Below are positions 3,828 to 54,653 of a stretch of 64,000 bases of DNA, in pieces. The translations under genes and the position numbers were made by a program. This stretch comes from an uncultured bacterium. Lineage in GTDB: Bacteria; B130-G9. The stretch covers positions 18,580 through 82,579 of the forward strand of contig CBDVDH010000007.1 in the NCBI GenBank assembly GCA_965372715.1, given 5' to 3'. Position 1 is the stretch's first letter, and the number at the start of each line of letters is the position of its first letter. Under the pieces are notes generated by a model. It was not told where the DNA came from, did not search any database, and saw only the letters and a program-made list of their open reading frames with translations.

Positions 3828-4328
3828 CTATTTCCTGTCAACACCGGCCAGCAATTCCTTCGTCGTATAATACAGATTAGCTCGCCGGATAAGATCAAAC
3901 GGCACCTCGAGCTGCTCCTTAGACGAAAGCTCAAAAACTATTGCTACGCGGTCATCTCTCTGAATCACGCCTTCAATCTTGCCCACGAACTTCATTCTGT
4001 TCCCAACTATCTCGGAAAGAAAAACCCTGGCCTTTTGACCACTAAATCGCTCGAAATCATCAGGCCGCTTCAGGGGCCTCATAATCCCGGGCGAAGAGAC
4101 CTCCAGTACATATTGATGCGGAATAAAGTCCTCGATGTCCAGAAGAGGGTCAAGCTGAGCACTCAACTCTCTCAGGTCGGCTACCGTGACACCGCCCACC
4201 TTGTCCGCTAAGACGGTCAAGAACCACTTATTTCCCCTCTTCCTAAAATCAACATCAACAAGCTGAAGACCGAGCTCGGCACAGACCGGCTCAGTCAGAG
4301 CCCATGCCTTGTCGGCTACTGCATTCAT
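3828..4328 (-). CDS. rimP: ribosome maturation factor RimP
   Basis: LTEPVCAELGLQLVDVDF...FLTVLADK matches the RimP N-domain. It sits immediately upstream of nusA. Start is probably the second ATG (MNAVADK), which has a weak RBS. Confidence 0.85.
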   Translation of the reverse strand: MNAVADKAWALTEPVCAELGLQLVDVDFRKRGNKWFLTVLADKVGGVTVADLRELSAQLDPLLDIEDFIPHQYVLEVSSPGIMRPLKRPDDFERFSGQKARVFLSEIVGNRMKFVGKIEGVIQRDDRVAIVFELSSKEQLEVPFDLIRRANLYYTTKELLAGVDRK

Positions 4329-5972: not shown

Positions 5973-6550
5973 CTACCTATATGGCCTCGCCAAAGGAATG
6001 TGGACCAATGCTAAACGAAGGCGCCGCTGCCCAAGACATCTATTCAACACTAACATTATCGTCTGCGAAACTGGATAGATTAACAGGGTAAAGCAATACA
6101 ACATTATGCCCTGAACGAGAACCCCTACGCTCAACGGCCAGTCGTGTAAAACCTCCATCCTTGTGCGCCGACCAATCCCAGGTCCCCCGAAAGGACCTCG
6201 GTTTGTGAGCGTCCCAAGTTATCTTTCTGCGAGCCCGCTATGGCGTTTGCTGATATCATTCAGGAGGTTTCCCCAAATACGAGGTTCAAATCCCTGAGTG
6301 AGCTCCTGTATAGCCCTATTCAGCACTGTTGCGAAGTGGAATACGCCTGGCAGAAGGCCCGCACCAGGGGCCGTGCCCCGTTCGTGAGGGGCAGTTTGGC
6401 GCCTTTACAGTGGCTTAAACCAGTCCCTTTTCTCCCGTTTCACCAATGGGGAAACTCCTCTGGCGCCTTTGCGTTGACCAAGCTTGTTGTTATTGTTGTG
6501 GTCGTGTCGCGGATTTCAGCGGATTTGCCGAAGGTCTTGGGAACATACGG

Positions 6551-7855
6551 ATGTCGAACGTTACTGCACTTATGGATGACGCAACGAAGGTATGCCTGAG
6601 ATGCGGCTCGTGCCTTTCAGTGTGCCCGGTCTATAAGAGGCAGCTGACCGAGATGGTTACGCCTCGGGGCAAAATGGCGCTTGCCGAGGCGGTCTCGACC
6701 GGCGAGATCGGCGCGAAGCGCGACGTCGCCTCGTATCTCTCGCAGTGCCTCGTCTGCACGGCGTGCATGGACGAGTGCCCCAACAACCTCGACGTCGATG
6801 TCCGAATGATCGCCGGGCGGTCGGCCCTCCGGATGTACAAGCTCAGCAACTTGCCGTTTTTCGCAGCATTTCGCACCGTTTTGCAGACAAGGTCGCTGAT
6901 GGACCTCGGCGTATTCATCGGACGCCTGTTCCGCCGACTCTTGTTCTTCAAGGTTCCGGGCGAATCAGGGATGCACCTTCGATTTCCGATTATGGTCTCG
7001 AGGGATCGGCTGCTGCCAAAGATCGCACCCAGATCGTTCCTCAAGTCAGCCGCCGCCAGGCGCCGTTCCACGCCGAAGCAGACTACCAAGTGCACATCGG
7101 TCGCGTATTTCGTCGGCTGCATGGGCAACTACTCCTGCACTGAAGTCCCCCGCCATCTGCTCGAGCTGTTGCCTGAAGGCGACATCGCACTGTCGATCCC
7201 TCTGAAGCAGAAGTGCTGCGGAATGCCGGCCATCGTCTCCGGCGACCTCGTCTCCGCCAGGAGGCTGGCCAGGCAGAACGTCAAGGCCCTGCTCGAAACT
7301 GCCCCAGACAAGATAGTGATTGCCTGCGGCTCGTGTGGCTCGACGATTAAGCACTATTACCCAGTGCTCTTCAAGGATGACCCAAAGATGCGCGCCTCGG
7401 CCGAGGACGTCGCCTCGCGCATAATCGACGTGTCCGAGCTGCTCGTTGACATCCTGGGCCGCAGGGACTTCTCGGTCAACCGGGCTCTGCTAGAGCGCTT
7501 GGGACTCGATACTACAAGGCCCGTGAAGGTTACCTACCACGATGCGTGCCATCTAGGTCGGAGAATGAAGGTCATTGCTCAGCCGAGGACGATCCTGAAG
7601 AACACTGACGGCGCTAAGTTCGTTCCGATGCAGGATGAGACCGTCTGTTGCGGCTGTGGCGGGCTGTTCAGCGTGCACCACTACGACATTTCAAGCGCCA
7701 TAACTGCCGACAAGGCGCGAAACATCAAAGCGTCCGGAGCGGACATCGTCGCGACCGGCTGCCCGGCCTGCGCAATGCAAATAGCCGATGGACTTGCCCA
7801 CATCGGCCACAACATCCCCGTCGTCCACACAATCGAGCTGCTTGCGACTGAGTGA
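6551..7855 (+). CDS. (Fe-S)-binding protein, GlcF/LutA-like, with two CCG domains
   Basis: Two 4Fe-4S ferredoxin motifs (CLRCGSCLSVCP, CLVCTACMDECP) followed by two cysteine-rich CCG domains (CCGMPAI, CCGCGG). Start taken at the internal ATG (MSNVTALMDD); the track ORF begins at 6446. Confidence 0.75.
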   Translation: MSNVTALMDDATKVCLRCGSCLSVCPVYKRQLTEMVTPRGKMALAEAVSTGEIGAKRDVASYLSQCLVCTACMDECPNNLDVDVRMIAGRSALRMYKLSNLPFFAAFRTVLQTRSLMDLGVFIGRLFRRLLFFKVPGESGMHLRFPIMVSRDRLLPKIAPRSFLKSAAARRRSTPKQTTKCTSVAYFVGCMGNYSCTEVPRHLLELLPEGDIALSIPLKQKCCGMPAIVSGDLVSARRLARQNVKALLETAPDKIVIACGSCGSTIKHYYPVLFKDDPKMRASAEDVASRIIDVSELLVDILGRRDFSVNRALLERLGLDTTRPVKVTYHDACHLGRRMKVIAQPRTILKNTDGAKFVPMQDETVCCGCGGLFSVHHYDISSAITADKARNIKASGADIVATGCPACAMQIADGLAHIGHNIPVVHTIELLATE

Positions 7856-7968: not shown

Positions 7969-7986
7969 TTGTCCCAAATGGGACAA
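7969..7986 (+). promoter_or_regulatory. NifA-type upstream activator sequence 1 (TGT-N10-ACA palindrome TTGTCCCAAATGGGACAA)
   Basis: Perfect 8-bp inverted arms around an AA centre. Matches the bEBP (NifA-like) UAS consensus TGT-N10-ACA. Lies about 210 bp upstream of the sigma-54 -24 element. Confidence 0.55.
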
Positions 7987-8001
7987 TTGGGCAAAAATCG
8001 C

Positions 8002-8017
8002 TGTCCCAAATGGGACA
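8002..8017 (+). promoter_or_regulatory. NifA-type upstream activator sequence 2 (TGTCCCAAATGGGACA)
   Basis: Second copy of the same palindrome, centred 32 bp (three helical turns) from the first. Confidence 0.55.
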
Positions 8018-8184
8018 ATTAGGGCAATGTAGTTACCTCGCGATAAGACATGATATAGGGCGTTTATGGGCGATATGATGCCACTTCTTGCAGAGGGGCA
8101 GATTCGCGTGCGAACGTGGGCCAAAAATCAGCTCGATGCTCGTAATCCCGCTTCCTGTCGGCAATGTGGAATGATGCCAGCCAC

Positions 8185-8201
8185 TTTGGCACGGAATCTG
8201 C
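8185..8201 (+). promoter_or_regulatory. sigma-54 (-24/-12) promoter, TTGGCACGGAATCTGCT
   Basis: TGGCACG-N4-CTGCT with correct GG/GC spacing, against the consensus TGGCACG-N4-TTGCW. Two enhancer palindromes lie 180-210 bp upstream. Confidence 0.55.
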
Positions 8202-8211
8202 TAAAAATCAC

Positions 8212-8405
8212 TATGGAACGCCTAATGAGGAGGCGGTAAGAAGAGACGTCAAGGAGGTGTTCATATAAGGTTCGCCCCGATGAGCCACAAGTGGCTCAAC
8301 TTTTAGCCCTCGGCAGGCGCCTGATGCGCCTGCCCGACCCCATCCAGTTCGAGGGCAAACTTGGCCCGGGGGACCGTCGGCCCTGACGGTCCCCCAACAT
8401 TTTTC
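8212..8405 (+). ncRNA. candidate sigma-54-dependent small RNA (~190 nt, hairpin-rich, no credible ORF)
   Basis: The region between the predicted TSS and the terminator has only 8-20-codon ORFs without an RBS. It contains perfect hairpins GAGCCAC-AA-GTGGCTC and GGCAGGCGC-CTGAT-GCGCCTGCC. It ends at the GGGGGACCGTC...GACGGTCCCCC stem plus AACATTTTT. Confidence 0.4.
8367..8405 (+). terminator. intrinsic terminator-like hairpin (11-bp GC stem, T5 tract after a 4-nt gap)
   Basis: gggggaccgtc-ggccct-gacggtccccc followed by aacattttt. Confidence 0.45.
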
Positions 8406-8702
8406 CCGCTTCTGCTGTCCCGTATGCTTGTGCTTGATCTGTGCGAACCCGCCGCGATTGTGTGGGGAGGAGTCTCTTTCACAAAGACACTAAGGCACTA
8501 AGGCACTAAGAAGACCATACATTCGGTCGCGCATTTTTGAATAGGCATAGCATTGACGCAATTGATCCGAACGGGCGGCGTCTGATACTCTTCGCGCAGT
8601 TGAGGCGTGGGTCTTGCACAAATGAGGAGGATGTATAGTGCCCTGGAAGCTCTCGCTCGGGCGGGGCGCTGCCAATAGAGCAGGCTCTGTGGAGAAGAGA
8701 CA

Positions 8703-10106
8703 TTGACGAAGGATTTGGAACTCGACTTCGACGGCACGCAAGAGCAGGAAGGCCGTAGAATATATAAGGTTTCGGAGCTTGCCGCAGAAATAAAGGGCCT
8801 GCTTCAAAGGCGTTTCTTCGACGTATGGCTCGAGGGCGAGATAACCGATTTCAAGCGTTCAGGCGCCGGCCATCTCTACATGCGGCTGAAGGATGACAAG
8901 GCCCAGATCAGCGCCGTAATGTTCCGCAACAAGGCCATCTTCTTGCGCTTCAAGCCCGAGAATGGGCTGGCAGTCATCGCGAGAGGGTCGGTCAGCTGCT
9001 ACCCGCCTTCGAGCACGTATCAGATCATTGTTGACTACTTCGAGCCAAAAGGCGTCGGCGCCCTTCAGCTGGCGTTTGAGCAGCTCAAAGCCAGGCTCAA
9101 CGCCGAGGGCCTCTTCGCGCCGGAACGAAAGAGGCCTATCCCCAAGATGCCCAAGACGATCGGCGTCGTCACCTCACGGACCGGGGCCGCGATTCGCGAC
9201 ATCCTCAACATCACGAGGCGCAGATTCTGTTCGGCGCACATCATTCTGTATCCTGTGCTCGTGCAGGGCGACAAGGCGCCGGGCGAGGTTTCGCACGCTA
9301 TTGACGAGATGAACCGCCTCGCTCTGGTTGACGTCCTGATCGTAGGCCGGGGCGGGGGCGCCGCGATCGACCTTTGGGCCTTCAACGAGGAATGCGTCGC
9401 GCGCGCAATCGCGAGGTCCGAGATACCGATAATCTCTGCCGTTGGGCACGAGGTCGATTTCACGATCGCTGATTTCGTTGCCGACCTTCGCGCGCCGACG
9501 CCGTCCGCAGCGGCAGAGCTCGTAGTGCAAAACAGGGCAGAGCTTCTTTCAAAAGCCGATTCTTTCCGCGGCCGTCTGCTCAGGATGACGCTGGACAGGT
9601 TGGCGTTTGTGCGGGAAAGACACAAAACGATGTCCGCGGCGCTGCGGCTGAATAGTCCCGAACGGCCTATACAGCTTCTGATGCAGAGGCTGGACGAGTT
9701 CGACGCCAGGCTGCGGCGAGGCGCGTTGGCCTACATCGAGCGGAGGCGACAGAACGTTTCAGCCCTTTCCGCCCGCAATCAGTCGCTCAAGCCGACGGTT
9801 AAGATTGCGGCCATGACTTCAGTCCTCGAGGGTTACGACAGCAGGCTCTCTGCCGTGATGCAGGCCAAGCTGGAATTGCTGGGTACACGTTGCGACGCGG
9901 CTCACAACCGGCTAATCTCGCTGAAGCCACAAAACGTCATCAGAAGGGGCTATGCGATATGCCAGAACGCGGCAACCGGCAAGCCTGTCTCGAGGGCGAG
10001 AGACACCCACATCGGAGCCGCGATTCTTGTGACGCTGTCGGACGGAAACCTGGGCTGCCAGGTCAACGACATCTCTATCTCCCAGGACGCCTCGGACAAT
10101 GAATGA
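8703..10106 (+). CDS. xseA: exodeoxyribonuclease VII large subunit
   Basis: 467 aa with RIYKVSELAAEIKGLLQRRFFDVWLEGEITDF, an XseA OB-fold N-terminus, then the catalytic region. TTG start. Confidence 0.9.
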   Translation: MTKDLELDFDGTQEQEGRRIYKVSELAAEIKGLLQRRFFDVWLEGEITDFKRSGAGHLYMRLKDDKAQISAVMFRNKAIFLRFKPENGLAVIARGSVSCYPPSSTYQIIVDYFEPKGVGALQLAFEQLKARLNAEGLFAPERKRPIPKMPKTIGVVTSRTGAAIRDILNITRRRFCSAHIILYPVLVQGDKAPGEVSHAIDEMNRLALVDVLIVGRGGGAAIDLWAFNEECVARAIARSEIPIISAVGHEVDFTIADFVADLRAPTPSAAAELVVQNRAELLSKADSFRGRLLRMTLDRLAFVRERHKTMSAALRLNSPERPIQLLMQRLDEFDARLRRGALAYIERRRQNVSALSARNQSLKPTVKIAAMTSVLEGYDSRLSAVMQAKLELLGTRCDAAHNRLISLKPQNVIRRGYAICQNAATGKPVSRARDTHIGAAILVTLSDGNLGCQVNDISISQDASDNE

Positions 10107-54072: not shown

Positions 54073-54653
54073 CGCGAGGTCCTCCAAGTTCATTACACTT
54101 ATAGCAACGCAGCGAAAACACTGGACGGATTCATAAGCAGATTCCGTACCAATTAAATAGAATACCTGCTTTTTGGCGCATTTGCTCGGATCTTTGTGGT
54201 CCCCAATAATCAGATTGATTTGGTATCGCGAATCGTAGGATCATATGAATCGGGCACTTGAAAGGTCAGTTGTCGGGCCATAGTTGGTTTTGGTCTTGCA
54301 CCCGTTGGGTGATGATTTGGAGTGCGGGGACCTGGCACCGCTTTCACTTGCCGCAGCCCGATGCGGCGCCTTTTTTTGATTAACAGCTCCGGGAAGTCCG
54401 GATCGGTGCCTTTAGGGTCTTAAGAGCCGTGCATTAGGGGTGGTGTCGAGCCACCACCAATGAAATCCGCCGCGCGGCGGACGCACTCCAAAAAGCCAGA
54501 ACCAGCTTGGGTCATTTGACTATTGCGAGCGCGGCTGATCGTTGCTTTTTTGGCACTAGGTCTGCGATAATCCACAACACGTGATAACACCTGATACAGA
54601 ATCATAGTGTGGCTTGCTGGCTGCGTGTGTGCTGCAATCAACGGGAAAACCAA

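Follow-up and report, generated by a model that had tools for sequence, protein, structure and literature searches.

The 64,000-nt stretch of contig CBDVDH010000007.1 analyzed here (hereafter the window; coordinates are on its plus strand unless stated otherwise) comes from an uncultured bacterium. Between a gene for an iron-sulfur protein of the Fer4/CCG type (6446–7855) and xseA (8703–10106) it carries, in this order, two copies of a dyad sequence, a GATAT-rich box, a promoter of the sigma-54 type, a segment predicted to be transcribed into a structured RNA of ~193 nt, and an intrinsic terminator. Very probably this is a stand-alone small RNA (sRNA) gene of the sigma-54 type. That positions 7970–8405 constitute a self-contained gene for a non-coding regulatory RNA under the control of a bacterial enhancer-binding protein (bEBP) and sigma-54, and that this explains the region in full, we consider probable on balance; the dependence on sigma-54 and a bEBP and the ends of the transcript are predictions from the sequence. 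An earlier note on this DNA had proposed the same core reading, namely a distant enhancer, a sigma-54 promoter and a terminated RNA without an open reading frame (ORF), and this reading is now supported by an architecture that recurs with fixed spacings in five lineages.

Predicted activator dyads and sigma-54-type promoter

The distal dyad, upstream activating sequence 1 (UAS-1; 7970–7985), reads TGTCCCAAATGGGACA and is an inverted repeat with arms of 7 + 7 bases around an AA core. The proximal dyad, UAS-2 (8002–8017), has the same sequence and starts 32 bp after the first, a distance of three helical turns, and the direct repeat around the dyads runs on to ...ACAATT(A)GGGCAA. The earlier note had described two TGT-N10-ACA dyads three helical turns apart, and both are present at these positions; its term "perfect palindromes" is correct for the arms but slightly overstated, as the AA core is non-complementary and the dyad is not strictly perfect. 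Two exact dyads are far above chance: the expectation for the pattern with an N4 core, from shuffles of the window, is 0.19, and the observed count of the full dyad pattern was reached in 0 of 100 shuffles.

A −24/−12 promoter of the sigma-54 type, TGGCACGGAATCTGCT (8187–8202), begins 185 bp after the start of the proximal dyad and 217 bp after that of the distal one. It agrees with TGGCACG-N4-TTGCW at 15 of 16 positions, and its GG (8188–8189) and GC (8200–8201) lie exactly ten bases apart, which bears out the near-consensus promoter that had been claimed downstream of the dyads. A CTGC at −12 is present in validated Salmonella sigma-54 promoters, e.g., those of glmY and astC (PMC3844500). 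Taken together, the dyads, their spacing and the promoter look like the footprint expected of a looping enhancer with a sigma-54 promoter, judging from motifs, distances and conservation. The statement of the note that no bEBP is encoded nearby also holds, in that the window, translated in six frames over its 64 kb, shows neither bEBP motifs (GAFTGA, ESELFGH, Walker A) nor an RpoN-box.

The window contains a second sigma-54-like element, TGGTACGGAATCTGCT (54151–54136, minus strand), which has the same spacer as the promoter of the RNA and is followed, after ~45 nt, by the ATG (54093) of a gene for a 1237-amino-acid (aa) surface protein with beta-helix/DUF1565 features. No TGTCCC...GGGACA dyad occurs upstream of this element, nor does any inverted repeat with arms of at least 12 upstream of the site near 54140, and a different activator would therefore be needed there.

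Conservation of the unit in related lineages

A scan of GTDB species representatives with XseA returned best relatives that were 46% identical, and the dyad was present in 0 of 80 loci. A large protein collection yielded XseA and CCG homologs with 65–96% identity that form a tight clade, several of them labelled Candidatus Coatesbacteria, and the whole unit was found in four further diverged Coatesbacteria-like lineages. The element is complete in loci L081–L083 (XseA 87% identical to that of the window), L087 (Coatesbacteria GCA_016929465.1; XseA 74%), L096 (CCG 76%) and L098 (Coatesbacteria GCA_003647755.1; CCG 73%). The five lineages compared in this study are the window, L081, L087, L096 and L098, with neighboring proteins that are 69–87% identical to those of the window. 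The element is absent from the related loci L088, L093 and L097, and also from L084 and L094, whose xseA has a different upstream neighbor.

Within these lineages the locus shows a clear phylogenetic footprint, in which enhancer, promoter and RNA are kept and the spacers have diverged. Identity to the window is 79–92% for the enhancer, 73–92% for the promoter (57–71% for the spacer upstream of it) and 74–88% for the RNA, as compared with 55–71% for the spacers before, between and after these elements and 78% for the last 300 nt of the neighboring CCG gene. The predicted RNA is 191–199 nt long across lineages, and its homologs score 180–238 bits against a covariance model of the RNA.

The architecture is conserved in its distances as well. 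Equivalents of UAS-1 occupy the corresponding position in L081, L087, L096, L098 and at a paralogous locus in L096 (the p91 locus, described below), and the 32-bp spacing of the dyads is found in six of six regulatory regions, i.e., the five RNA loci and the paralogous one. The distance from the proximal dyad to TGGCA is 185, 185, 176, 186, 185 and 186 bp in the six regions; the outlier of 176 bp, in L087, is shorter by roughly one turn of the helix. All six aligned loci keep TGGCA-N7-TGC unchanged between variable flanks, and it is this conservation across loci that gives the promoter its significance, a match in a single window being insufficient. Apart from these elements, conservation between dyads and promoter is confined to the GATAT-rich box (8049–8080), which lies midway; GATAT(A/T) is kept in the six aligned regulatory regions, and its surroundings have diverged. 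A sigma-70 scan marks the box as a weak match (ATGATA-18-TATGAT), and it is possibly a site for a DNA-bending protein.

A pattern scan of metagenomes with two invariant RNA blocks yielded only L091 and L092, which are strain-level fragments of the same locus. The two come from different samples and both stop within the RNA (L091 1–158, minus strand; L092 1–169, plus strand), with an identical overlap of ~125 nt, which suggests a branch in the assembly graph, brought about by variant strains or by repetition of the RNA core. Searches with nhmmer and the covariance model found no second copy of the RNA in the window or in the fetched loci, and no contig showed more than one.

Extent and structure of the predicted RNA

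The RNA is predicted to extend from 8213, a start placed from the −12 GC, to 8405, an end placed from the T-run. Its 5′ module, GGAAC...AGGAnnnGGUAAGAA (8213–8243), resembles a ribosome-binding site (RBS) and has no start codon; the conserved GGUAAGAA at 8236–8243 is not followed by a usable one. A second Shine-Dalgarno-like motif, GGAGGUG (8253–8259, within a feature at 8251–8259), is invariant in all lineages and likewise has no start codon at working distance. The most strictly kept part is a 17-nt block, GUUCGCCCCGAUGAGCC (8270–8286), which is identical in the five lineages, C-rich and a candidate seed. Hairpin Pa (UGAGCCA/UGGCUCA; 8281–8298) follows, and then the Pb/Pc domain (8306–8356), in which an outer helix, GCCCUCG/CGAGGGC, encloses the hairpin GCAGGCGC-CUGAU-GCGCCUGC. 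This domain also contains the conserved C-rich single strand CCGACCCCAUCCAGUU (8334–8349), of which the unpaired stretch CCGACCCCAUCC (8334–8345) is conserved, less strictly in L096 and L098. The unit closes with the intrinsic terminator (8368–8404), which has a 12-bp stem (8368–8379/8384–8395) with nine G-C pairs, a GCCC loop and, within the stretch AACATTTTT that follows the stem and ends at 8404, a T-run at 8400–8404.

The RNA segment folds into a structure more stable than that of 200 of 200 shuffles (z = −4.2). In single-sequence folds, Pa and the terminator appear in six of six sequences and Pb in five, and Pc as drawn gives way to an alternative pairing in L096 and L098. Across the five independent lineages, in an alignment fitted to the structure by the covariance model, 92.9% of cells are paired over the four helices, compared with 32–45% when the partners are slid by one to three columns; the figures are 96% for Pa, 98% for Pb (8306–8312 with 8350–8356) and 91% for Pc (8313–8333). 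Six pairs show changes on both sides, and the pairing or covariation score was reached in 0 of 500 shuffles. Five of these pairs lie in the terminator stem and one in Pc, and one position of Pa varies as G-C, G-U and A-U. The helices are thus conserved, with compensatory changes, and the earlier claims of a structured transcript and of a terminator with a GC stem and a T-tract at 8368–8404 are both upheld, the stem having 12 pairs.

RNAalifold predicts that GGAGGUG pairs with CGCCCC at 8273–8278; both sides are invariant, which makes a covariation test impossible. A long-range 5′ GGA...GGU/ACC...UCC pairing that appeared in the first alifold run was rejected, as it is gone in the five-lineage alifold and broken in L098.

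Coding potential and family searches

The predicted transcript is non-coding. On both strands, every reading frame is interrupted by stops in at least one of the five lineages. The earlier statement that no ORF exceeds 20 codons does not hold to the letter, since a GTG-initiated ORF of 31 codons is present at 8291–8386 of the window, but this ORF is not conserved, an ORF of 49 codons occurs in L087 only, and a conserved ORF is absent in the five lineages. A 1-nt insertion in the loop of hairpin Pa in L087 shifts all frames and leaves the helix intact.

The Rfam scan suggested in the earlier note was run on the window and on the four homologous loci, and no family was matched. No Rfam 15 family reached its gathering threshold in the window, including Qrr, GlmY/GlmZ, CrcZ and the riboswitches; the best sub-threshold match was tfoR (24.9 bits against a threshold of 70), due to hairpins plus a terminator, and the four homologous loci gave no recurring match even at permissive thresholds. 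By these comparisons the RNA appears to be a conserved, previously undescribed family of a known regulatory type.

A second unit with the same control module

The paralogous locus lies on the minus strand of L096 (9358–8801). Two perfect dyads (9358–9343 and 9326–9311), 32 bp apart, are followed after 186 bp by TGGCACGGGATGTGC, then by a 38-nt leader and then by an ORF for a 91-aa protein, p91. This protein falls into 13 clusters, all inside the same clade, and is highly conserved (VECGHVGAGK, LPRAKKK, VKSVxPI); searches of Pfam, NCBIfam and PDB gave no match to it, and its predicted fold is uninformative. The p91 leader, AACACCUGUCAAGGAGGUGGCAAGAA-AAUG, aligns with the 5′ end of the RNA, GACAUCUCGUAAGGAAUUGGUAAGAA; within L096, the 5′ module of the sRNA is GACATCTCGTAAGGAATTGGTAAGAA and the p91 leader is AACACCTGTCAAGGAGGTGGCAAGAA followed by AATG. 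At the p91 site the covariance model gives a weak match of 13.7 bits. From the alignment of the leader with the 5′ end of the RNA it follows that a module of enhancer, promoter and leader is common to an mRNA and to the RNA gene. The 5′ end of the RNA is, as far as sequence comparison can tell, an RBS look-alike without a start codon, paralogous to the 5′ untranslated region and RBS of p91, and we propose that the RNA and p91 belong to one regulon.

Proposed mode of action

In the model that we favor, dimers of a bEBP encoded elsewhere would occupy the two TGTCCC-N4-GGGACA dyads on the same face of the DNA. By looping of the DNA between them, and possibly aided by a protein at the conserved GATAT box, the bEBP would contact sigma-54 RNA polymerase at the −24/−12 element, 185 bp downstream. 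Transcription would start near 8213 and end at the terminator at 8368–8404. The RNA would then act in trans, most likely through its C-rich strands GUUCGCCCCGAUGA and CCGACCCCAUCC, which could pair with G-rich ribosome-binding regions of mRNAs, and it would share its regulon with at least p91, a small protein specific to the clade. Base-pairing is our first choice over a sponge or decoy function, and a tentative one.

Several observations weigh against this model or against parts of it. A match to the promoter consensus is, taken alone, within chance, as at least one match with at most one mismatch occurs in 43 of 100 shuffles of the 64 kb. The bEBP and RpoN-box motifs were also not found in loci L081–L095. 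With five lineages the covariation is suggestive and not statistically decisive, and most of the both-sides changes fall in the terminator stem, with Pa and Pb hardly varying. The terminator hairpin is kept in L096 and L098 but its U-run there is degenerate (CCUUAUC), and a good T-run is confined to the other three lineages, the window, L081 and L087. As to base-pairing, the C-rich block is itself partly paired with the Shine-Dalgarno-like GGAGGUG in the prediction, and a target search in the 64 kb gave longest complementarities of 10–12 nt, which is chance level, with none at a start codon. RNAduplex runs against the start regions of neighboring genes were not above background, and long inputs give non-specific duplexes.

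The best-surviving alternative, which we nevertheless regard as unlikely, keeps the gene and changes the function of its product. The RNA would be a sponge that sequesters a protein or ribosomes, its RBS look-alikes AAGGAnnnGGUAAGAA and GGAGGUG titrating a CsrA-like repressor or the 30S subunit and thereby relieving or imposing control on p91-type mRNAs, much as the sigma-54-dependent CrcZ titrates Hfq/Crc. The invariance of GGAGGUG and the conservation of GGUAAGAA, neither with a usable start codon, would fit such a function, as would the paralogy between the 5′ end of the RNA and a real RBS region, that of the co-regulated p91; a precedent exists in CrcZ/CrcY, which are driven by sigma-54 and the bEBP CbrB (PMC8871633). 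However, there are just two or three GGA- or Shine-Dalgarno-like motifs, they lie in the 5′ third of the RNA outside the predicted hairpin loops, and the most conserved block is C-rich rather than GGA-like. Protein-sequestering RNAs of the CsrB/RsmZ kind, by comparison, expose many GGA motifs in hairpin loops.

A related proposal concerns the origin of the gene: that it arose by duplication of a p91-type enhancer, promoter and leader, with the RBS look-alike kept as a working part. We give this little credence as stated. If true, the activator would yield both p91 mRNA and an RNA that mimics an RBS and competes for an RBS-binding factor or the 30S subunit, or, alternatively, the RNA would switch itself between a masked and an unmasked state by means of its C-rich blocks; either would amount to a built-in feed-forward or decoy circuit.

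Comparison with known regulatory RNAs

The enterobacterial sRNAs GlmY and GlmZ, controlled by GlrR, resemble the unit described here in being encoded by stand-alone genes with a sigma-54 promoter of the TGGCAC-N5-CTGC type, with upstream repeated dyads of the TGT...ACA type, a length of ~150–200 nt and an intrinsic terminator. GlrR sites have the form TGTC-N10-GACA, whereas the dyad here is TGTC-N8-GACA, present in two copies, and no overlapping sigma-70 promoter is evident. The Salmonella glmY promoter reads TGGCACAATTACTGCATA (PMC3844500). There is no similarity in sequence or structure, the Rfam models are unmatched, and the organisms are Coatesbacteria-like in the one case and Gammaproteobacteria in the other. 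The mechanism of GlmY, a decoy for RapZ, is not transferable to the present RNA.

In Pseudomonadaceae, CrcZ, CrcY and CrcX are transcribed from sigma-N promoters directly activated by CbrB and act as sponges through repeated short motifs (PMC8871633). That system shares with the present one a single bEBP over sRNA and protein genes, if the dyads at the sRNA and at p91 are read in this way. The crcZ gene, however, adjoins the activator gene cbrB, whereas no bEBP was found here within the 64 kb, and the motifs of CrcZ are A-rich Hfq sites in contrast to the C-rich blocks and the Shine-Dalgarno-like GGAGG of this RNA, with which there is no homology.

The Qrr RNAs act in trans by base-pairing, through a conserved seed that is single-stranded, and have a terminator hairpin. 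They are ~100 nt long, multicopy and Hfq-dependent, in contrast to the one copy per contig seen here; they share no sequence similarity with our RNA, and Rfam RF00378 is unmatched. Qrr1–5 of Vibrionaceae, with LuxO as activator, are bEBP- and sigma-54-dependent sRNAs (PMC4878744).

The label "Nif-type", which the earlier note had attached to the enhancer, could not be retained. The NifA upstream activating sequence is TGT-N10-ACA upstream of −24/−12 nif promoters (PMC2820453, PMC6066989), and both dyads here do fit that format upstream of such a promoter. The same format has also been reported for RosR, an unrelated archaeal regulator, and is thus not specific to NifA (PMC7145548). The conserved dyad here is longer (TGTCCC...GGGACA), and neither of the units controlled is a nif or fix gene; with a generic format and an RNA and a 91-aa protein as the units controlled, the identification as NifA sites was dropped.

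For the suggested mode of action, RsaE/RoxS of Firmicutes offers an analogy only, in that the two CCCC-containing stretches of our RNA could mask G-rich ribosome-binding sites. In RsaE/RoxS-type sRNAs, C-rich motifs pair with Shine-Dalgarno regions. Promoter type, size and structure differ, there is no homology, and it is uncertain how far the C-rich blocks of the present RNA are accessible.

sRNAs controlled by sigma-54 and a bEBP serve as central switches, Qrr, GlmY/Z, CrcZ and NrsZ being examples, and to our knowledge nearly all of those described are proteobacterial. The present unit would be a clearly bounded case from Coatesbacteria, an uncultured candidate phylum for which a search of the literature turned up no study of regulatory RNA. 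Its clean architecture provides a covariance model for a new RNA family, and the DNA motif can be used to define the regulon of the activator in metagenome-assembled genomes. It also makes visible how one promoter-and-leader module can belong to both an mRNA and an sRNA. The finding leaves existing concepts unchanged, and testing in the native host will not be easy.

Gene neighborhood

The unit always lies behind the CCG gene, and its downstream neighbor varies. In the window this neighbor is xseA, which begins at 8703, downstream of the terminator as the earlier note had it; a dihydroorotate dehydrogenase gene also lies downstream. In L081 and L087 a gene for a secreted beta-propeller protein of 1023 and 1055 aa, respectively, comes next and is followed by xseA, and in L096 and L098 the neighbor is a convergent gene for a membrane protein that is 70% identical between the two. 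A good U-run is found exactly where the next gene is co-directional and a degenerate one where it is convergent.

This arrangement bears on the reading of the RNA as a cis-acting 5′ leader or attenuator of an operon of the beta-propeller gene and xseA, with a terminator regulated by a riboswitch or by attenuation. A co-directional gene does lie 200–300 bp past the terminator in the window, L081 and L087, and a GGGC/GCCC hairpin and Pb are mutually exclusive and could in principle form a switch. The convergent orientation of the next gene in L096 and L098 contradicts such a role, and the RNA is therefore not a 5′ leader; no co-directional ORF of at least 70 aa occurs in these two loci until well inside the convergent gene. 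Past the terminator, moreover, there is a sigma-70-like element, TTGATC (or TTGACG)-N16-GATACT, at 8562–8589 of the window, ~829–856 of L081 and ~759–786 of L087, and a promoter of the TTGATC-N16-GATACT type is also present in L084 (~3928–3955), which has no RNA at the locus. As the element is shared, even by L084 without the RNA, the genes downstream possess a promoter of their own; with a match at just 8 of 12 positions, it escaped the simple promoter scan.

Gene loss at the locus points the same way. The beta-propeller protein (PF13570/PQQ_2, 1023 aa) is represented in the window by a remnant at 8610–8650, recognized by comparison with L081 880–925, that consists of an RBS, GAGGAGGA, and the first codons GTG CCC TGG AAG (RBS and codons together at ~8624–8650). 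The gene of ~3.1 kb has been deleted in the lineage of the window and in strain L092, and the RNA unit is intact and was retained after the loss. No riboswitch family was matched either, and we consider a leader function very improbable. The RNA gene is independent of the gene downstream, as expected for a stand-alone sRNA gene.

Least credible of all is that the segment is a functionless, decaying remnant of a sigma-54-dependent protein gene with a p91-like promoter and leader, or else a gene for a tiny protein: its promoter and 5′ leader are indeed paralogous to those of p91, genes are lost at this locus in the lineage of the window, and short ORFs of 31 codons (window) and 49 codons (L087) exist in single lineages, but the body of ~190 nt is as conserved as the adjoining coding DNA in five lineages and contains an invariant block of 17 nt and helices that have been maintained, no frame is open throughout, the 1-nt loop indel of L087 shifts every frame, and tblastn with p91 gives no trace in the RNA regions.

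Between the terminator and the downstream promoter, the window also carries a tandem octamer, CACTAAGG, in three copies, the last of which is CACTAAGA (8488–8511); two copies of CACTAAGG are present in L081 and L092.

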